Of a DNA stretch of 64,000 bases, positions 1-55,960 are shown piece by piece. The notes under the pieces are model-generated. The model worked only from the letters and a program-made list of their open reading frames with translations. It was not told where the DNA came from and ran no database searches. Position 1 is the stretch's first letter; each line of letters begins with the position of its first letter. The translations under genes were made by a program, and so were the position numbers. Source of the stretch: Escherichia phage A5-4; the sequence record OP744025. One strand, 5' to 3'.

Positions 1-882
1 ATAGGCAACATTGATCAAGTCATCACCGATGATATCCGTGCTGGTAAAGTGACTTCCGGTAACACTGTTATCACTCGCACTGTCGGGTCTAATGACCCCG
101 CTCTTGAAGTTCGTGGACCAGGTGAGATTCAGGGCGACCTTAATGTAACCGGAACTGTAACTGGTAACATTGACCTTAGCTCTCAAGACGTTAACGTTGC
201 TTCTATGACCTCAACGGGAACAGTAAATGCCCTTTCCATTGAGTCTCGTACATCGGTAACTGGATTGTCTGGTACATTCGGTGAAGATTATGAAGGTGCA
301 CCTACCTATGGTATAACTTCTCTTTCCGGCGCAAACATCAACAAGAACCTTCGAGTTGGTGGAAACCTGACTGTTGTTGGTAACATCTCTGGCAATATCG
401 ACTTATCTGGAAAGGCGATCGAGCCTGCATCTTTGTCTACCACGACAGCTACGTTAACGACGGCGAACATAACAGACCTGACTGTAACTGGTCAGTTTAA
501 TATCCCGACTGTACCGTTAAATGTTCAATCCCTTAGTTCTGAAAACGCTATTTCTGCAAGCAAGTTCAGCACCACACCAAAAGAAGTAAGCACCACCTCT
601 TCTTCTTACATCCCAGACGGCTCAACGAGCATATATAACGTAAACGTTATAAATGATGTTGAAGTGAAAGCGCCGATTGGCCTGTTGAGTTCAGGAAAAG
701 GTGAGTCAGTATTCCTCTTCTTTGAACAGGATGGTACTGGTGGACATGCGGTAACATTCGGATCGGAGTTTGTTGTGCACGGTACTGAAACCATCAACAC
801 AGATGCAAACACTGTGTCGGTAGTTAACATGGTTTATCGTGGCAAAGGCCCATTGATTGACGTATTCATCACTCGTCGCTAA
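1..882 (+). CDS. tail fibre-like protein, C-terminal part (5-prime end lies outside window)
   Basis: Frame 1 is open from base 1 (listed ORF 49..882 begins at an internal GTG). Gly/Thr/Ser/Asn-rich repeats (NVTGTVTGNIDLS, NLTVVGNISGNIDLS) typical of fibrous tail proteins. Terminator follows. Confidence 0.5.
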   Translation: MGNIDQVITDDIRAGKVTSGNTVITRTVGSNDPALEVRGPGEIQGDLNVTGTVTGNIDLSSQDVNVASMTSTGTVNALSIESRTSVTGLSGTFGEDYEGAPTYGITSLSGANINKNLRVGGNLTVVGNISGNIDLSGKAIEPASLSTTTATLTTANITDLTVTGQFNIPTVPLNVQSLSSENAISASKFSTTPKEVSTTSSSYIPDGSTSIYNVNVINDVEVKAPIGLLSSGKGESVFLFFEQDGTGGHAVTFGSEFVVHGTETINTDANTVSVVNMVYRGKGPLIDVFITRR

Positions 883-49637: not shown

Positions 49638-50018
49638 ATGAAAATGGCTAAAAATACTAACGTTTGTGATTACGCTGATCTGGTTACTCTGAATGCAGAT
49701 TCTAAAATCAACCTGTCAAACGTGGAAGCGGTGCACGTCCTGGCCCGCCGCTGGTTCCAAAAGTTATATGGTAATACTTATTTCTCTTTAAGTGTGGATG
49801 TGGAGATCGCTGGTAAATTGGTAGAAGTAGTTAACGTCCCGTTTAAATATGGTTATGGTGATCATTTCGATACCGTGGCACTGGAAGAATTTAGCAAGGT
49901 TATCAACATGGAAGGAAAAGAGTTTTCAGAGTATAGTTACCTTTCCCGTTTTTGCCGTGACAATAACATCCCTGTTTATTCGAACGCTGTTGATGTTAAA
50001 CGCAAAAAAGATATGTAA
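49638..50018 (+). CDS. hypothetical protein
   Basis: 126 aa ORF downstream of the cassette. Confidence 0.5.
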   Translation: MKMAKNTNVCDYADLVTLNADSKINLSNVEAVHVLARRWFQKLYGNTYFSLSVDVEIAGKLVEVVNVPFKYGYGDHFDTVALEEFSKVINMEGKEFSEYSYLSRFCRDNNIPVYSNAVDVKRKKDM

Positions 50019-50105
50019 TTATTATTGACAGTACATAGAAAACAAGTAAACTGTATTACATAGAAAGCGGGAACACTTCCCGCTTATATTTCAGGAATAA
50101 GAGAA

Positions 50106-50357
50106 ATGATCGAACAAATCAAAACTACGACGGCTAACGTAACGGGTACAATATCGCACTTTATTAGTGATGAATCGCGGGGCGTTCCTTATTGTGCAGT
50201 ACATGTAAACAAAAATGGCGACTACTGGTTAACGGCGTATGGATCTTATTCTTTCGGACGTAGTGCACACCAAAAGATCCTGGATAAAGTACAACCAACG
50301 GGTAAAAATATTACCGCTGAGATGTTTAATAAATCACTTGCAAAGTTAAAAGCGTAA
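50106..50357 (+). CDS. hypothetical small protein
   Basis: 83 aa; cassette with hairpin gcgggaacacttcccgc upstream. Confidence 0.5.
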   Translation: MIEQIKTTTANVTGTISHFISDESRGVPYCAVHVNKNGDYWLTAYGSYSFGRSAHQKILDKVQPTGKNITAEMFNKSLAKLKA

Positions 50358-50418
50358 AGTATAATACATCACATCAGGCGGGGAGTGTTTCCCCGCCACA
50401 AAATGAAAGGCCAACAAA

Positions 50419-50598
50419 ATGAAATCAAGCATGATGGTAGCGACTGTAAACATTATCATTGGTAACGGAACTGGACACCACGAAATCATAAAAAACAAGG
50501 CTTACTCTATTAGCTCCCTCAAAAACGACATGCGTTTATCTTTGGGCCAAATCCGCGCTTACTTTCGTGAAGGCTATCAGAAAAAAGTAGCAAATTAA
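50419..50598 (+). CDS. small protein (59 aa), not in ORF track
   Basis: ATG 50419 follows hairpin ggcggggagtgtttccccgcc; translation MKSSMMVATVNIIIGNGTGHHEIIKNKAYSISSLKNDMRLSLGQIRAYFREGYQKKVAN. Confidence 0.45.
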   Translation: MKSSMMVATVNIIIGNGTGHHEIIKNKAYSISSLKNDMRLSLGQIRAYFREGYQKKVAN

Positions 50599-50658
50599 TA
50601 GTTGACGCAAAGGTCATTTTAATTTAATCTATAACAAATCGACAAATGAGGCATAATC

Positions 50659-50961
50659 ATGTTTACCAAAGCAAATGAGTATTTCTTTTTAGATTTACTT
50701 GATGAAAGTATCTTTGTAGCTATGGGCAAAAAGTCAATGGTCTTTAAACGCAAAAAAGATAATGGTGACTTTGAAGATAGCGAAGCCGTGCTAACAGTCA
50801 AGGAAGGTAGAGATCCTGCTACGTCTGTTTTAATCTACACCTTGACCAACGGCGGTGAAGTTATCGCATCAGGTAGTAGCCATCCGATCCCAAAATCGGA
50901 AGTGAACACTGTAATTATTGGTTTTGTTGTAGCTTGTTTCTACGAGGAAAAAAGCAAATGA
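50659..50961 (+). CDS. hypothetical protein
   Basis: 100 aa; promoter TTGACG at about 50600 upstream. Confidence 0.5.
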   Translation: MFTKANEYFFLDLLDESIFVAMGKKSMVFKRKKDNGDFEDSEAVLTVKEGRDPATSVLIYTLTNGGEVIASGSSHPIPKSEVNTVIIGFVVACFYEEKSK

Positions 50962-51122
50962 ATCCGCAAAATTTATCTTATGTAAACTGGCCCAATAAGG
51001 CTGAGAAGAAAGAAAACTTGAAACGTCTGGTTAACTTTTATCGTGAAGCTGGTCATAGTAAAGTAACAGCGGTTAAAATGGCAAAGCGCCACCTTAACAA
51101 GCCAAGTACTAAACTAATTTAA
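50958..51122 (+). CDS. hypothetical small basic protein
   Basis: Track ORF 50934..51122 trimmed to ATG 50958 (MNPQNLSYV...), ATGA-coupled to the upstream gene, GAGGAA RBS. Confidence 0.45.
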   Translation: MNPQNLSYVNWPNKAEKKENLKRLVNFYREAGHSKVTAVKMAKRHLNKPSTKLI

Positions 51123-51193
51123 AAACTTGTTGACGTTGGCTTGTGCCGTACCTATAATGGACGGCATAGGCAAACGAAATAGGATTTATAGAA

Positions 51194-51400
51194 ATGAAAA
51201 AGAAAATTGTATATAATATTATTAGCTTTATCGCAACTATCCTCCTGGCTATTGCTGGTCTATCTTTGATTGTTGCAGTAGGATCTCTGTTTCCTGGGGC
51301 AATAAGTATTAGCATAGCTTTCGCCGCATTGTCTGTTTTTACAGGGTATGCAGGGATTAAAGTTACTTATTGGTCAGAAGATTACAAATATTCAAACTGA
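51194..51400 (+). CDS. hypothetical small membrane protein
   Basis: 68 aa, two hydrophobic segments; promoter TTGACG-N17-TATAAT upstream. Confidence 0.5.
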   Translation: MKKKIVYNIISFIATILLAIAGLSLIVAVGSLFPGAISISIAFAALSVFTGYAGIKVTYWSEDYKYSN

Positions 51401-51413
51401 ATTGAGGTGTAAG

Positions 51414-51563
51414 ATGTACAAGCTATTAACCTGGGAAACAGAATCATCGTCACCGATCAGCCGGACCTTTTTTGATTTGTGCACGGCTTACAGGCTGGCA
51501 AAGGGAGGGTATCATAAGGCCCAAATCATTGATGAATTTAATGTTATCCTTTATGAATTTTAA
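51414..51563 (+). CDS. hypothetical small protein
   Basis: Track ORF 51348..51563 trimmed to ATG 51414 (MYKLLTWE...) with GAGGTG RBS. Confidence 0.4.
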   Translation: MYKLLTWETESSSPISRTFFDLCTAYRLAKGGYHKAQIIDEFNVILYEF

Positions 51564-51790
51564 TCAATTCATATACTTAAAAGAAAGTTAGAAAAAGTTT
51601 TAAAAAGTGGTTGCAACAGGTATTGGATAGTAGTATAGTACTTTCAACGGGGCGAGATGGCCCAAAACGAAAAAACTTGAAAGGTGATTATCATGATGGC
51701 AATTTTCTTAATTTCTCTTCTGGTCGCTGTATGTTCTGCCACTGCTGCCGCTGTACTTTATGACACCCGCTACAATGAGGAATAATAAAA

Positions 51791-52009
51791 ATGAATATTG
51801 TCAACATTACAGGTAAGACCGAGATCCTTAAGAATCTTGCGCCAGGTGAGTCCACCGTATGGATCTGCAAAGATGGCGAAGTAGAAAAACAAATGAGATT
51901 GTTTACCGCTATTTGTTGTCGGTTAAATATGAAAGTTACACAAATCCGATCGATGATTGTTAGTGTGGGAAACATTCCGACTGAATGCATAATTCTTACA
52001 AAGATTTAA
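51791..52009 (+). CDS. hypothetical small protein
   Basis: 72 aa; GAGGAA RBS. Confidence 0.45.
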   Translation: MNIVNITGKTEILKNLAPGESTVWICKDGEVEKQMRLFTAICCRLNMKVTQIRSMIVSVGNIPTECIILTKI

Positions 52010-52085
52010 AAATAGCTTTACAACAACGATAAAATCAGTACAATACAAATCAGGCAATAAAGCCAACTAAAGAAAGGTAAAGACC

Positions 52086-52325
52086 ATGCAAACTATTATC
52101 ACTAAATTTCTTCCTCCTACGAATACCCGTGGCGCTCGCATCAAAGCAAAATGTTGGTTGACAGATATCACTATCGCCTATCCGGTAGCCGAGATCAACG
52201 AAGCCCATAAACTGGCGGCAGAAGTGTTAATTACAAAATTGAAGATGACAACAGATATTGATTGGAAAATTGTTGCAAGTGGTGAAACACCGGACGGATC
52301 AGGTTATGCATTTATCATCAAATAA
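52086..52325 (+). CDS. hypothetical small protein
   Basis: 79 aa ORF. Confidence 0.5.
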   Translation: MQTIITKFLPPTNTRGARIKAKCWLTDITIAYPVAEINEAHKLAAEVLITKLKMTTDIDWKIVASGETPDGSGYAFIIK

Positions 52326-52328
52326 TTG

Positions 52329-52357
52329 TTGACAACAGCAAAGTAAGCGCGTAGTAT
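52329..52357 (+). promoter_or_regulatory. promoter plus stem-loop cassette
   Basis: TTGACA (52329-52334), 17-nt spacer, TAGTAT (52352-52357); hairpin ggggcgacaagcgcccc follows. Confidence 0.55.
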
Positions 52358-52393
52358 TCATTTTACAGGGGCGACAAGCGCCCCGCTTATCAG

Positions 52394-52675
52394 ATGAGAC
52401 AAATCATGAAAATATCATTGGACGTTGCAATCAAGGCCATCGAATCCGGTTACACTCTGGTTAAGGACGATAAGGCTAAAATCGTGCATCACGTTAACAA
52501 GGAAACAGGCGAAAGCATGATCACATATAAAGCCGCCTACTTTCTCCAATCAGTAGCAGATCCGCGCCTGCAACGCCAGGTTACGGCGGCTATCGCTAAA
52601 AAATTATGTGCTTTACAGGGTACAAGTTTTAACGAGATCGCCCCGTGTTTTGATTGGTCAAGCTTGAAAAAATAG
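52394..52675 (+). CDS. hypothetical protein
   Basis: 93 aa ORF; alternative start ATG 52406. Confidence 0.5.
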   Translation: MRQIMKISLDVAIKAIESGYTLVKDDKAKIVHHVNKETGESMITYKAAYFLQSVADPRLQRQVTAAIAKKLCALQGTSFNEIAPCFDWSSLKK

Positions 52676-53090
52676 TTTGACAATACGCAGTTATCTGGTA
52701 AAGTGTACTACATAGCGCGGAAATACTTCCCGCCATTAATGAGGATAATTTAATGAAAACTTTCAACGCAACAGCCTCGACAATTGGTTATATTATTACA
52801 GTGCAAGCCGTAGATCTGGTAGCAGCAGCAAACAAGATTAAAAGAATGATCCCGCTAGGTAGTGAATTTTCCGTTTGGGAAGTAAAATAATTCTTGACAA
52901 TAGTTTGTTACTTGATAGAATGTATTTCGTAGGGCGGGGCAATGGAGCAACGCCCATTAATGAGGCTAGCATCATGTTAGAGAAAATTTTCACGGTTGCA
53001 GTGGTTGGCCTGGCGTTATCGGTTGGAGTGGTTGCAACTATGGCTAATATGATCCTATCTTCCCACGGTATCGGTTAAGAGAGACACATC

Positions 53091-53477
53091 ATGAAAACAG
53101 AAATCATTATTGAAATCATCAACGGTTACAAAGAGGCTTTTATCTTTGCTGAATCAGCCAGGAATCACGAAGGTGATTTTATAGATGACATGACTGATTA
53201 TGATTTTTCAGATCAAGCCCAGCAACGGATCATTCGTGACGTGGCGGCTTTTTGTGACGCCAATGATGCCGCTATCTCTGAGGCAATGAGCGACGGCGCA
53301 ACAGCCAACCAGATCGGGAATGATTTACATTTTACCCGTAACGGTCACAGCGTAGGCTTTTGGGATCGCCCTGAGATATACACTACTAACACGGCTAACC
53401 GTTTGACCAATGCCGCTAAATTTATGCCAAACGTGTCAGCCTACATTGGGAAAGATAATCTGATTTATATTGAATAA
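53091..53477 (+). CDS. hypothetical acidic protein
   Basis: 128 aa ORF. Confidence 0.5.
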   Translation: MKTEIIIEIINGYKEAFIFAESARNHEGDFIDDMTDYDFSDQAQQRIIRDVAAFCDANDAAISEAMSDGATANQIGNDLHFTRNGHSVGFWDRPEIYTTNTANRLTNAAKFMPNVSAYIGKDNLIYIE

Positions 53478-53483
53478 AAAGTA

Positions 53484-53511
53484 TTGACAAGCTGAATCAA
53501 CCTGACAAGAT
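53484..53511 (+). promoter_or_regulatory. promoter plus stem-loop cassette
   Basis: TTGACA (53484-53489), 16-nt spacer, CAAGAT (53506-53511); hairpin ggggcgataaacgcccc at 53522-53538. Confidence 0.55.
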
Positions 53512-53558
53512 GTATCACATAGGGGCGATAAACGCCCCATAACAGAAAGGGTAATCTT

Positions 53559-53753
53559 ATGACGTTAGCAACATGTACCGGATCAAAAATTGCTTGCTTT
53601 GAGTTTATGGAAGACTACCACACGACCGCAATCACTGACCAATATATTACAGTGATCACGCGTGACGGTATCGCCTGGCATGTTCCGGTTTATGATGGGG
53701 ATACCTATGAAGTCACCGACAGCGACGGCAATACAGCTATCTTTGTTGTCTAA
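53559..53753 (+). CDS. hypothetical small protein
   Basis: 64 aa ORF. Confidence 0.45.
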   Translation: MTLATCTGSKIACFEFMEDYHTTAITDQYITVITRDGIAWHVPVYDGDTYEVTDSDGNTAIFVV

Positions 53754-53765
53754 GGGGGAAACACT

Positions 53766-53993
53766 ATGCACAATAACATCATTACCGATCGTGCCGCCAC
53801 TATGCGCCCTGGCGATCGGGCACGTTTACAGGTTGGCGCTTATCCGTTCCCTACTTATGACTTTTGCAAGGTGACGGCAGTCGAAAACAATCCCTTTGAT
53901 CCTGATACCGTGATCATCTGGTACGAAGGAAGGGGAAATAAGTATGAAGATGTTTTATGGCGGGATGAGCATATCAACATTATTCGTTACTAA
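53766..53993 (+). CDS. hypothetical small protein
   Basis: 75 aa ORF. Confidence 0.45.
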   Translation: MHNNIITDRAATMRPGDRARLQVGAYPFPTYDFCKVTAVENNPFDPDTVIIWYEGRGNKYEDVLWRDEHINIIRY

Positions 53994-54111
53994 TCGCCAC
54001 CTAACAGCCTAAATAGTAGGAGGTAATGCAATCCCCTACTCAATGAGAATGGAGCGCCCTGGCTTATGCTGGGGCGTTTTATGTTGTATGGAAATAATTT
54101 AGAAAATAAGC

Positions 54112-54140
54112 TTGACGCCGGGAATGTTAGCGCGTATAGT
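54112..54140 (+). promoter_or_regulatory. promoter plus stem-loop cassette
   Basis: TTGACG (54112-54117), 17-nt spacer, TATAGT (54135-54140); hairpin gcggcaatagtgccgc at 54153-54168. Confidence 0.6.
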
Positions 54141-54188
54141 TTATCACATAGGGCGGCAATAGTGCCGCTCATAATTGGAGTAGAGATC

Positions 54189-54362
54189 ATGGCAATTCTG
54201 GCGAAAGATGTAAAAGTAGGTATGACCTTTAATGATTGTGAAGTTGTCTATGTTGCCGCGCACGGCGACGGTATCATTACCATTGAAACAGAACACTTTG
54301 ATCGAGATTGTGGCGAGATGGAATATTTTTCTTGCGAGTATCATGAAAACGATGAGTTTTAA
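54189..54362 (+). CDS. hypothetical small protein
   Basis: Track ORF 54066..54362 trimmed to ATG 54189 (MAILAKDVKVG...) because the upstream codons overlap the promoter cassette. Confidence 0.45.
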   Translation: MAILAKDVKVGMTFNDCEVVYVAAHGDGIITIETEHFDRDCGEMEYFSCEYHENDEF

Positions 54363-54442
54363 ACTATTGACACTGTAAGTAATTGTGTTAATATTTTTGT
54401 GTAGGGCGGCAATGTTGCCGCTCACTGACTGGAGCTATCACC

Positions 54443-54844
54443 ATGACCTTTACAATCACCTCTTACACTGACGTTGCCAGCATTGCTAAAACTTTCGGCC
54501 CTGAAGCCCTTAAATATGCGGTATCCAATGGTAATCTGACAAAAGAGGAATGTTATCTGATTGGAAGCTGTAAACGTTGGGCGGTATCTCGTAACATCGA
54601 GATTGAAAACGTAAATGATGGCAACATCGAATATAGCGTTGATGCAGTATTCCAAGTTGTTGATTTAGGTGGTATCTATAATACCAATCTTAATGATGTG
54701 CGTATCGTTCGCACTGGCTTTGGGGCTTATGATGTTCCAGTTCGTGAAGCTATGGAAAAAGGTTATATTAATCCAGCCATTTTAAGCATGATCATGACTG
54801 AGGCCAAACAACGTAACGAGATACGGGCTATCCTGGGCCTGTAA
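54443..54844 (+). CDS. hypothetical protein
   Basis: 133 aa; cassette with hairpin ggcggcaatgttgccgc upstream. Confidence 0.5.
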   Translation: MTFTITSYTDVASIAKTFGPEALKYAVSNGNLTKEECYLIGSCKRWAVSRNIEIENVNDGNIEYSVDAVFQVVDLGGIYNTNLNDVRIVRTGFGAYDVPVREAMEKGYINPAILSMIMTEAKQRNEIRAILGL

Positions 54845-54943
54845 TGAAATATTAATGGAAAACTATTGACACGGATCGTCAATATGCTAATATTTATCAC
54901 GTAGGGCGGCAACGCCCCAGATTAATAAAAATAGGAAATAAAT

Positions 54944-55150
54944 ATGACTACTTCAATGATCAGATCTTCCGACATTAAAAAGGCTTTATCTGCATTGCGT
55001 TATCATCATAGAATGAAAGTAATCAACGATGAGAGCTATCTAGATTCATCGTTAGAAAGCGATACGTTGGAAGCCATTTCAAAATTATCTGATTTGCATA
55101 AACGCATGACCGAAAGCAACCGATCCGACTTCATAGGGGGCGAAATATGA
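54944..55150 (+). CDS. hypothetical small protein
   Basis: 68 aa ORF. Confidence 0.45.
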   Translation: MTTSMIRSSDIKKALSALRYHHRMKVINDESYLDSSLESDTLEAISKLSDLHKRMTESNRSDFIGGEI

Positions 55151-55407
55151 GCATTGCAATGTTAATCAATACCGTAGAAGAGGCGAAAGCATTAAAGTTA
55201 CGTGTTGAACTGATTGATCAGCCAGGTGGAGATCTCCTTGTACAAATCTATCCCCCAAAGGATGATTCTGGCGCTTATGATTGGTGCTACTCTGACACGT
55301 TCGAACAAGTAGACATTAAAGCAATAACATCATTTATCAATAGGGCTATACTTGAGCAAACGATAGAACTTAACGGGATGTTAAAAACACCCTGGCACAT
55401 TTACTGA
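55147..55407 (+). CDS. hypothetical small protein
   Basis: 86 aa; ATGA-coupled to the upstream gene; terminator follows. Confidence 0.5.
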   Translation: MSIAMLINTVEEAKALKLRVELIDQPGGDLLVQIYPPKDDSGAYDWCYSDTFEQVDIKAITSFINRAILEQTIELNGMLKTPWHIY

Positions 55408-55418
55408 GTTCGACAAAA

Positions 55419-55446
55419 GGGCTTGACTTGTTCAGCCCTTTTTTGC
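55419..55446 (+). terminator. rho-independent terminator
   Basis: Hairpin gggcttgacttgttcagccc followed by ttttttg. Confidence 0.6.
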
Positions 55447-55619
55447 TATTCTTATCAAACGGGCGGCACCTGGGAACAGGGGGGAGGTAATCACTGGACG
55501 ACTCCGCTATATAGTGATAGTAAATAGCTATCAATAATCTCCAAAAATAAAATAAAACCTATCGAGTCTTTACAATTCTTTCTATTGACACAACAACCGC
55601 ATTACAGTATTATTTATCT

Positions 55620-55880
55620 CGTAGGGCAGCGAAGCAGTGATGTAAAGTAGTTACTCTATGATGTAAGTTCTGAGAAGTCGAATCCGATAAAGTATCAGAA
55701 AGTTTCTAAGTTTTCGAATCGTCCAGATGAAAAAGGCTGGCAAGTGTTGAGAAAGGGCACGTTGAGTAAGTCCTGAACAGGGGCGCTCCTAGACACCTTC
55801 TACTGAGATTGCGATCGAAGTGTTAAACTGTGAGAAACGATAAAGAGTACCAGGAAAGAAAGAAGTAAAAGAAGTGAAAA
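55620..55880 (+). ncRNA. candidate promoter-driven non-coding transcript
   Basis: Promoter TTGACA (55585-55590) + TATTAT (55608-55613) is followed by about 260 nt with no ORF longer than a few codons, up to the next promoter (TTGACA 55886). Every other cassette in the array sits directly in front of an ORF. Confidence 0.25.
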
Positions 55881-55960
55881 AGATTGTTGACACGAAGGTA
55901 AGTTTTGTACTATTATCTATCTTGTAGGGCAAACTTCAAGAACATTAAAAAGGGTACAAA

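Follow-up and report, generated by a model that had tools for sequence, protein, structure and literature searches.

The window analysed here is a 64,000-nucleotide (nt) stretch of DNA from Escherichia phage A5-4 (sequence record OP744025), a Vequintavirinae coliphage of the Septuagintavirus type (genus name from PMC11370258). Two early promoter cassettes, termed promoters P1 and P2, lie upstream of a gene for a 91-amino-acid (aa) protein at 55961-56236. The DNA between them contains an element with no long open reading frame (ORF), the central part of which recurs in phages of other families, and which very probably constitutes a functional non-coding RNA cassette. Over positions 55400-55960 the window shares 99.3% identity with Escherichia phage A7_1 and 90-96% with phages A73, UPEC06 and LTH01.

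The promoter cassettes and the predicted transcript

Promoter P1 was rated a good promoter in a preliminary description of the region, and the rating holds: TTGACA at 55585 and TATTAT at 55608 are separated by a 17-nt spacer and together match the consensus at 11 of 12 positions. The next promoter, placed by the same description at 55886, has its TTGACA at 55887 (TATTAT at 55911, again 11 of 12 matches). A scan of 14 kb found 54 promoter-like sites, compared with 33.8 +/- 6.5 in shuffled sequences, and all five sites with 11 of 12 matches are on the + strand. The -10 box of promoter P2 and its initial transcribed sequence (55911-55931) are a repeat of 55608-55628 at a spacing of 303 nt, and the inserted RNA is thus bracketed by the promoter repeat. 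A terminator-like hairpin with a U6 tract (approximately 55419-55445) is found upstream of the P1 promoter region.

Promoter P1 would transcribe approximately 265 nt of purine-rich, C-poor RNA that consists of a 5′ module, the core, a variable linker and an A/G-rich tail (Table 1). The start at about 55620-55621 is predicted from the position of the -10 box, and the RNA itself is likewise putative. The short direct repeat TCGAATC, reported earlier as occurring twice, is present at 55678 and 55714. Both copies belong to a 17-nt imperfect direct repeat (55668-55684 and 55704-55720, 36 nt apart). The repeat is a lineage-specific 36-nt duplication and not a defining feature of the element.

Table 1. 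Features of the element and its promoters in the window
Feature	Position	Strand	Basis or remark
Promoter P1, sigma-70 early promoter, TTGACA-17-TATTAT, native Vequintavirinae cassette	55585..55613	+	11/12 match
Predicted non-coding transcript, A 36%, G 27%, U 23%, C 14%	55621..55886	+	Start predicted from -10 box; absent as a block from L051 and L056
5′ module: GAAGCAG motif, two mini-hairpins, AAAGUA after each	55628..55707	+	Homologous to 5′ end of Seuratvirus version
Hairpin PA1, GCA-GUGA-UGU, 3 bp, GNRA loop	55634..55643	+	100% paired, one-sided changes only
Hairpin PA2, GUCG-AAUC-CGAU; Seuratvirus AGCU-GAAU-AGCU	55677..55688	+	3/4 pairs changed on both sides, 100% of cells paired
Conserved 88-nt core, 85-92% identity across Vequintavirinae, Seuratvirus and Drexlerviridae	55714..55801	+	blastn/alignment
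Core hairpin P1, CCAG-AUGAAAAAGG-CUGG; alternative fold with U-GAAAA-A tip	55723..55740	+	A-U to G-C compensatory change
Micro-ORF MKKAGKC, 7 codons, sole ORF retained in all homologues	55727..55750	+	ORF comparison; no Shine-Dalgarno sequence in A5-4
Core hairpin P2, GUGUU-GAGAAAG-GGCAC, invariant	55744..55760	+	Alternative pairing AGA.AGG:CCUUCU possible
Core hairpin P3, GAG/CUC base, 5-bp stem, GAACA pentaloop 55775-55779 (GAANA, boxB-like)	55764..55788	+	Two pairs changed on both sides
Core 3′ end, AGACACCUUCU, resembling an anti-Shine-Dalgarno sequence	55791..55801	+	Core alignment
A/G-rich tail, AAAGAAGUA x2.3 (9-nt unit, ARN-type triplets)	55851..55886	+	Tandem-repeat analysis; like tails in Drexlerviridae and Seuratvirus
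Promoter P2, second promoter cassette, drives 91-aa gene at 55961-56236	55887..55916	+	Promoter scan

Reading frames

The interval had been described as containing only ORFs of 2-7 codons. This is correct for ATG ORFs on the + strand, the longest of which has 7 codons (MKKAGKC), and incorrect for GTG, TTG and minus-strand ORFs. Two GTG ORFs of the + strand reach 10 and 12 codons, and a TTG ORF that starts within the -35 hexamer reaches 21; the minus strand has ORFs of 30, 33 and 47 aa, some of which are labelled 'hypothetical protein' in the GenBank records of A7_1, UPEC06 and PH1062. None of the minus-strand ORFs is kept across homologues, and the frame of the 47-aa ORF annotated in A7_1 is disrupted in A73 and LTH01. 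The best of the longer + strand frames (VLRKGTLS...) is ended by UGA in the window, A73 and A7_1. In phages SLUR75 and WildeMaa a 1-nt insertion shifts all frames on both strands, and sequence conservation persists on either side of it. As to a conserved small ORF in homologues, which the preliminary description regarded as an argument against an RNA, every longer frame is broken and only the 7-codon ORF is retained. On this comparison of sequences, coding is excluded for anything longer than seven codons. The element is overlooked by annotation pipelines; GenBank records are either blank at this position or carry spurious reverse-strand ORFs.

Conservation across three phage families

The core matches unannotated DNA of the Seuratvirus (Queuovirinae) phages SA80RD, SLUR75 and WildeMaa (Bas23), and unannotated DNA of the Drexlerviridae phages Rtp, ZL19, PH1062 and BUCT-XGG-1. 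Its flanks are about 60% identical or unalignable between families. Protein-anchored look-ups in public assemblies added six Septuagintavirus-type contigs, the UPEC06 genome record and five Drexlerviridae-type contigs, which brings the number of distinct core variants to 13. Nearly all nucleotides of the core are held constant, and 19 of its columns are variable. The element is present in a single copy per genome, and a covariance model, R1, finds one copy in the window. In every family it is preceded by a promoter or promoter-like box and runs on the same strand as the downstream early genes. The Seuratvirus promoter is TAGACA-17-TACTAT; that of the Drexlerviridae, AAGACA-16-TG-TAATAT, was read by eye, and a strict promoter scan finds none there.

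Beyond the core, homology spans the entire transcript. The 5′ module is about 60% identical in the alignment of Vequintavirinae with Seuratvirus and is approximately 45 nt shorter in Drexlerviridae, and the A/G-rich tail recurs in all three families. The 5′ module is found alone, behind TAGACA-17-TATAGT, in the Salmonella phages 7-11, SE131, SeKF_80 and pSal-SNUABM-01. This solo module reads GAAGCAGUGAUGCAAAGUA...GUCGAAUCCGAC.AAGUA and is located at 1066-1165 of L013, 2491-2585 of L005 and 1-100 (minus strand) of L018. Three of the Salmonella phage records are linearised at one identical point inside the module, and in SE131 the module is followed by about 1.1 kb of unannotated DNA. The bases that follow the two AAAGUA copies of the Salmonella phage modules covary within a genome (ACC/ACC, GCU/GCU).

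Rfam 15 gave no match at the gathering score over the whole window, noise only at E up to 10 in 55560-55960, and no match at E up to 0.1 in five homologous loci. Pattern scans of IMG/VR returned Rtp and one 7-11-like phage and nothing else; a 19-base pattern, run once against metagenomes and once against GTDB, hit GC-rich coding DNA by chance and nothing more. Literature searches on phage early non-coding RNAs, Vequintavirinae transcriptomes, Bas23 and RNA decoys, and for the literal core sequence itself, turned up no description of the element. It is best regarded as a hitherto undescribed family of phage non-coding RNAs, with a promoter-bracketed mobile cassette as its carrier, and not as a categorically new system.

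Predicted secondary structure and compensatory changes

The RNA is purine-rich (A+G 63%, C 14%) and is modelled as mostly single-stranded, with small hairpins and long invariant unpaired stretches. The core would form three small GNRA-capped hairpins (hairpins P1-P3) separated by invariant single-stranded stretches. Covariation with homologous phages, which the preliminary description had suggested as a check, revealed compensatory pairs in hairpins P1, P3 and PA2 and in a hairpin specific to the Drexlerviridae. Hairpin P1 switches between CCAG/CUGG and CCGG/CCGG from family to family, and again within the Drexlerviridae (Rtp versus ZL19, PH1062 and BUCT). In hairpin P3, a C-G pair is changed to U-A in SA80RD and a G-C pair to C-G in SLUR75 and WildeMaa, and a U-G pair is also changed to U-A or C-G. 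Hairpin PA2 is GUCG-AAUC-CGAY in the Vequintavirinae and 7-11-group copies, as opposed to AGCU-GAAU-AGCU in Seuratvirus. The Drexlerviridae hairpin, which follows the core, changes from CAG/CUG to CGG/CCG (A-U to G-C). Controls in which the pairing partners were slid along the sequence were 7-52% paired, compared with 88-100% for the proposed structure.

Several of the pairs are G-U, and therefore the hairpins can form only from the + strand. Stems account for ten of the 19 variable core columns, and an eleventh corresponds to the fourth position of the P3 pentaloop, where A, C, G and U all occur among the copies. Hairpin P2, whose loop contains the 1-nt insertion of SLUR75 and WildeMaa, and the closing stem cannot be separated from the alternative AGA.AGG:CCUUCU pairing preferred by RNAalifold, because changes in them are absent or one-sided. 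At the core 3′ end, CACCUUCU is invariant in all copies, with a G in place of the first A in the metagenomic copy L060; the core 3′ end pairs with GGAAGGUG as a closing 8-bp stem in Seuratvirus only. Taken as a whole, the substitutions indicate that selection acts on the RNA, and neither on a protein nor on a DNA site.

Sequences immediately 3′ of the core have their own folds. The extra hairpin of the Drexlerviridae mentioned above reads CCGGC(A/G)G-CAAAGU-C(U/C)GaCCGG and is located directly 3′ of the core (242-275 of L001, and the equivalents in L059 and L060). In Seuratvirus, a GC-rich hairpin lies right after the core, with three CCGGGAC-like segments for which alternative pairings are possible.

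Genomic location and mobility

Two Vequintavirinae relatives without the RNA, L051 and L056, encode a 91-aa protein that is 75-83% identical to that of the window. In both, a single P1-type promoter cassette, ending ...TATTATTTATCTCGTAGGGC, directly precedes and drives the 91-aa gene. Relative to these phages, the window has an extra block that consists of the RNA and the second promoter cassette, inserted immediately after GTAGGGC and flanked by the two copies of a 21-nt direct repeat, the starts of which are separated by 303 nt. A similar pair is found in the Drexlerviridae, where two contigs from ENA, L058 and L059, encode an identical 65-aa downstream protein and only L059 has the element. 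The extra block of L059, from the upstream to the downstream AAATAGCAC box, is the RNA with its own promoter. In both comparisons (the window versus L051 and L056; L059 versus L058) the unit is bracketed by repeated promoter boxes, and it is present or absent at exactly those boxes.

The early slot of Seuratvirus (L041, L066-L070) is hypervariable, and five different occupants have been seen. The early promoter is followed by a 49-aa gene (in phage Seurat), a 68-aa gene, a 67-aa plus a 61-aa gene, a 112-aa gene, or the RNA, and next always comes a conserved 47-aa gene. The alternative occupants are all ORFans, with no Pfam or PHROG match. An all-against-all BLASTP comparison of ORFs around the element in four families found no common protein gene at the element, and Pfam and PHROGs were uninformative for the neighbouring genes. 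The cassette is thus horizontally mobile: recombination between duplicated promoter boxes brings about its gain and loss, among the hypervariable early genes of three unrelated virulent coliphage families.

Type of transcript

The preliminary description proposed a candidate small RNA (sRNA). Cross-family conservation, compensatory changes and broken reading frames uphold the proposal as far as a promoter-driven non-coding RNA is concerned; a discrete sRNA is not upheld, as there is no terminator. Of the classical sRNA signatures, the element has its own promoter (11 of 12 matches to sigma-70) and lacks a Rho-independent terminator. In Seuratvirus it is the 5′ leader of an early operon and has no second promoter. 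The element probably gives rise to a leader-type or processed RNA, and not to a classical terminated sRNA.

Other RNA classes were considered and rejected. ARAGORN found no tRNA or tmRNA in the window and none in 11 homologues at a relaxed threshold; the ps60 setting yielded inconsistent junk only. The T-loop-like UCGAAUC is outside a T-arm context, and a tRNA or tmRNA mimic was rejected. The Seuratvirus copy can fold as a four-way junction, with junction lengths unlike those of tRNA. A riboswitch was rejected as well: the downstream genes are unrelated in the three families, there is no common terminator or platform that sequesters a Shine-Dalgarno (SD) sequence, the sequence 3′ of the core is family-specific, and the fold is no more stable than those of shuffled sequences.

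Possible functions

The core is nearly invariant, its carriers share only the host E. coli, and no phage protein travels along with it; the RNA therefore most likely binds a conserved host component. Probably it acts on such an E. coli component early in infection. The early hypervariable regions of virulent phages are a source of anti-defence and takeover functions, and the known examples are almost all proteins. It is tentatively proposed that the RNA is a decoy which titrates a host RNA-binding protein or nuclease and thereby provides an accessory anti-defence or takeover function. The RNA would be made abundantly from the first minutes of infection, either free or as the 5′ part of early transcripts. 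Its target may be a defence sensor or effector, or a global RNA regulator, and its function may be interchangeable with that of the small ORFan proteins that occupy the same slot in sister phages. The decoy is favoured because of the accessory, slot-swapping and horizontally transferred pattern of the element. It is ranked first, ahead of a cis-acting antiterminator and an Hfq-linked regulator, which are given equal weight; a micro-ORF, a DNA-level element and non-functional filler are each of low probability. A related formulation, possible if more doubtful than the decoy itself, is an RNA-only 'moron', exchanged between unrelated virulent coliphages, that would need no phage protein and would disarm or hijack a conserved machine of E. 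coli, either as an inhibitor of an anti-phage defence system or RNA-binding regulator or as a portable put-like device through which host RNA polymerase would become termination-resistant, with the three boxB-like GNRA-capped hairpins as the binding surface.

If the proposal is correct, an RNA-only player joins the phage early arsenal, in a slot otherwise filled by small ORFan proteins. The interest of the element lies in its near-identity across families, the substitution of an RNA for a protein in one slot, the blind spot in annotation and the availability of test phages. The available carriers are Bas23 (WildeMaa), which belongs to the BASEL collection, A7_1 and A73, both of them phages of K-12, and Rtp. 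L059, which has the cassette, and L058, which does not, form a near-isogenic natural pair, and within BASEL the sister phage Bas25 (VogelGryff) is without the element.

Several observations weigh against the decoy. Known RNA decoys arose as sequence mimics of host RNAs, and a blastn search (word size 11) of 5,426 E. coli genomes and 72,556 plasmids found no host homologue of the element, only low-complexity chance matches; the RNA is thus no sequence mimic of a host antitoxin, CRISPR repeat or sRNA. Nor is there a tandem-repeat architecture, the sole tandem repeat being the 9-nt unit of the tail (x2.3). RNA structure prediction, a further check suggested in the preliminary description, showed no unusual stability: predicted folding is no more stable than that of shuffled sequences (z-scores -1.2 to +1.6). 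Few independent lineages stand behind the covariation, and the effective sequence number of the covariance model is 1.11. In the window, Rtp and WildeMaa, no terminator-like site was found downstream of the core as far as the next gene. A cis-acting element would account just as well for the location of the RNA, which is always close to a promoter, co-oriented and in a read-through position.

Such a cis-acting element might be a processive antiterminator or an anti-Rho leader similar to HK022 put or lambda nut. The nascent core would bind RNA polymerase or Nus factors, and transcription from the element promoter would then pass the hairpins or terminators between early cassettes. In all three families the element lies directly behind an early promoter or promoter-like box, in early-operon orientation and with no terminator of its own; in Seuratvirus it is an obligatory 5′ leader of the operon. 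Terminator-like hairpins are found between cassettes in the window and in SA80RD, hairpin P3 resembles boxB, a C content of 14% suits a Rho-resistant untranslated leader, and a universal host target such as RNA polymerase would account for the near-invariance. In addition, put works without a phage protein (PMC9378689). An antiterminator is nevertheless considered unlikely. The element is patchy, being gained or lost between near-identical phages, and sister phages with the same operons manage without it. In the Seuratvirus slot it replaces a protein gene and is not added before one, and in the window a strong second promoter downstream makes the next gene independent of the element. There is no sequence similarity to put or nut phages; put is formed by two long stem-loops of about 70 nt, as opposed to three short hairpins; the boxA-like CGCUCUUA is confined to UPEC06-type copies, where it lies on the wrong side of the hairpin; and similarity to the rrnB leader is within the range of shuffled sequences. 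To a similar degree doubtful is an Hfq-linked base-pairing regulator or sponge. In this model the distal face of Hfq would bind the 5′ region and the ARN-type tail, and single-stranded parts of the core that do not vary, among them the anti-SD-like CACCUUCU, would base-pair with a conserved sRNA or mRNA of the host. In its favour are the high purine content of the RNA, its scarcity of structure and its long invariant stretches without pairing, the AAAGAAGUA repeats of the tail, with similar tails in other families, and the enrichment of AAGU in the window RNA (11 copies versus 4.6 expected). The prophage anti-sRNA sponges AgvB and AsxR provide a precedent. However, a Rho-independent terminator and U-tail are absent, the AAGU enrichment is not reproduced in other families, and duplex energies of the conserved segments with 16S, 23S and 5S rRNA and tRNA-Glu are no better than those of shuffles. 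The compensatory changes also show part of the conserved core to be a hairpin and not a seed.

The three remaining explanations are less probable. A DNA-level element, perhaps an R-loop-type replication origin, a recombination or homing site or a protein-binding site, is improbable. R-loop origins have a promoter followed by purine-rich non-template DNA, a layout that the element resembles; it also has locally the highest combined GC and AT skew, and is mobile and flanked by repeats. Yet hairpin-keeping compensatory changes and G-U pairs that form from the + strand only are unexpected for sites in duplex DNA, close relatives dispense with the element, the skew is only modestly above that of neighbouring genes, and an endonuclease gene is not consistently adjacent. 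Still less likely is a translated product, either the micro-ORF or leader peptide MK[K/N]AG[K/E]C (55727-55750) or some other small protein. The micro-ORF is intact in all 13 distinct core variants, and in Seuratvirus the SD-like GGAAGGUG lies 10 nt 5′ of the AUG. The SD sequence is absent from the window version, however, and of the three changes, two alter the amino acid (K to N, K to E) and the third, a synonymous one, is half of a compensatory stem pair. Conservation runs 50 nt past the stop codon, and every longer frame on both strands is broken in some homologues. The least probable explanation is that the element is non-functional filler, either a decayed gene or a by-product of promoter-cassette recombination. 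Its dispensability in relatives, ordinary folding energy and lack of a known homologue would fit filler, but 85-92% identity over 88 nt in unrelated families, with divergent flanks and compensatory substitutions, is incompatible with neutral drift.

Comparison with known systems

In its mode of action the element would come closest to a nut/put-type leader or an RNA decoy, yet it belongs to neither class. The element and lambda nut are both promoter-proximal RNA elements of early operons. Lambda nutL boxB is GCCCU-GAAGA-AGGGC, and the boxB pentaloop is GAAAA or GAAGA. Hairpin P3 is similar in having a 5-bp stem and a GAANA loop in which only the fourth base varies, which is the signature of a GNRA-like pentaloop; it is thus a boxB-type hairpin, with compensatory changes in the stem. 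One P3 copy reads GUCCC-GAAGA-GGGGC. A conserved boxA (CGCUCUUA or UGCUCUUUA) was not found 5′ of the hairpin; CGCUCUUA is present in UPEC06-type copies only, 3′ of the hairpin. BLASTP found no N-like protein common to the three families near the element, a search that very short arginine-rich motifs would escape. Unlike lambda nut, the element has three hairpins and long invariant single strands, and is an accessory unit exchanged between unrelated virulent phages.

HK022 put is approximately 70 nt in length, has two long stem-loops with a triplex and binds the zinc-binding domain of the RNA polymerase beta′ subunit (PMC9378689). Like put, the element is an ORF-free RNA just 3′ of early promoters and has no dedicated phage protein (PMC9378689). 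It differs in having no blastn similarity to lambdoid phages, in its three short hairpins and in its patchy, mobile distribution. A mimic of the rrn leader was considered and rejected: in local alignment with the E. coli rrnB leader, the query is equalled or surpassed by 109-294 of 300 shuffled versions. Matches of GAYGAAAAAUG and AGCGAAGC to the rrnB leader were not above shuffles either.

Arbiol et al., in 2010, are said to have described PeSL cassettes of T4-type phages, in which repeated early promoters reportedly flank and shuffle small units of the hyperplastic region. The element is similar in that duplicated promoter boxes bracket the unit exactly. It differs in carrying a conserved non-coding RNA in place of an ORF, and in that this one payload recurs in three families whose promoter boxes are not the same. 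Anti-defence decoys, such as pseudo-ToxI and CRISPR-repeat-like RNAs, are also early, accessory and patchy phage non-coding RNAs; they act on a host protein, as is proposed for the element. These decoys are recognisable copies of host RNA or tandem repeats, whereas the element has neither of these properties, and tandem repeats of about 35-45 nt homologous to a host antitoxin, as in ToxI, were not found in it. With AgvB, AsxR and Hfq-dependent sRNAs the element shares the properties of a short, phage-borne, promoter-driven non-coding RNA with ARN-type purine tracts. It differs in lacking an intrinsic terminator or U-tail and in being carried by virulent phages and not prophages.

Other features of the region

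Positions 50000-58500 of the window contain an array of near-consensus + strand promoter cassettes with a common -10 box and initial transcribed sequence (TATTAT..ATCTCGTAGGGC). Near the RNA, every cassette drives one or two small ORFan genes, in a PeSL-like layout. Hairpins with or without a U-tract are found between cassettes of the array, for example at 56248-56267 and 56570-56595.

Directly after the terminator-like hairpin upstream of promoter P1 is GC-rich non-coding DNA (55452-55512), which is kept in L051 and L056, the relatives without the RNA. It has a small CCUG-GGAA-CAGG hairpin, the loop of which is GUAA in L056. The segment overlaps a 34-aa TTG ORF (55423-55527) that is frameshifted in L051; the UPEC06 record annotates a 36-aa coding sequence at this location.

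Downstream, at 56292-56561, is a gene for an 89-aa protein that is found in every RNA-bearing Septuagintavirus-type contig that reaches that far and is absent from L051, L052, L056 and L057, which have no RNA. In the other families, no homologue of this gene was found in the vicinity of the RNA. The C-terminus of the 89-aa protein (IRRDEAEHNQAWQEW) bears a faint resemblance to the arginine-rich motif of lambda N. In UPEC06 the gene is labelled 'DNA translocase FtsK', a label that looks spurious.

A small early protein encoded at 52086-52325 (+ strand) is 35% identical over 63 aa (E = 9e-9) to bas23_0076 of WildeMaa (521-769 of L009, minus strand). This likeness is a second sign of early-gene exchange between Vequintavirinae and Seuratvirus.

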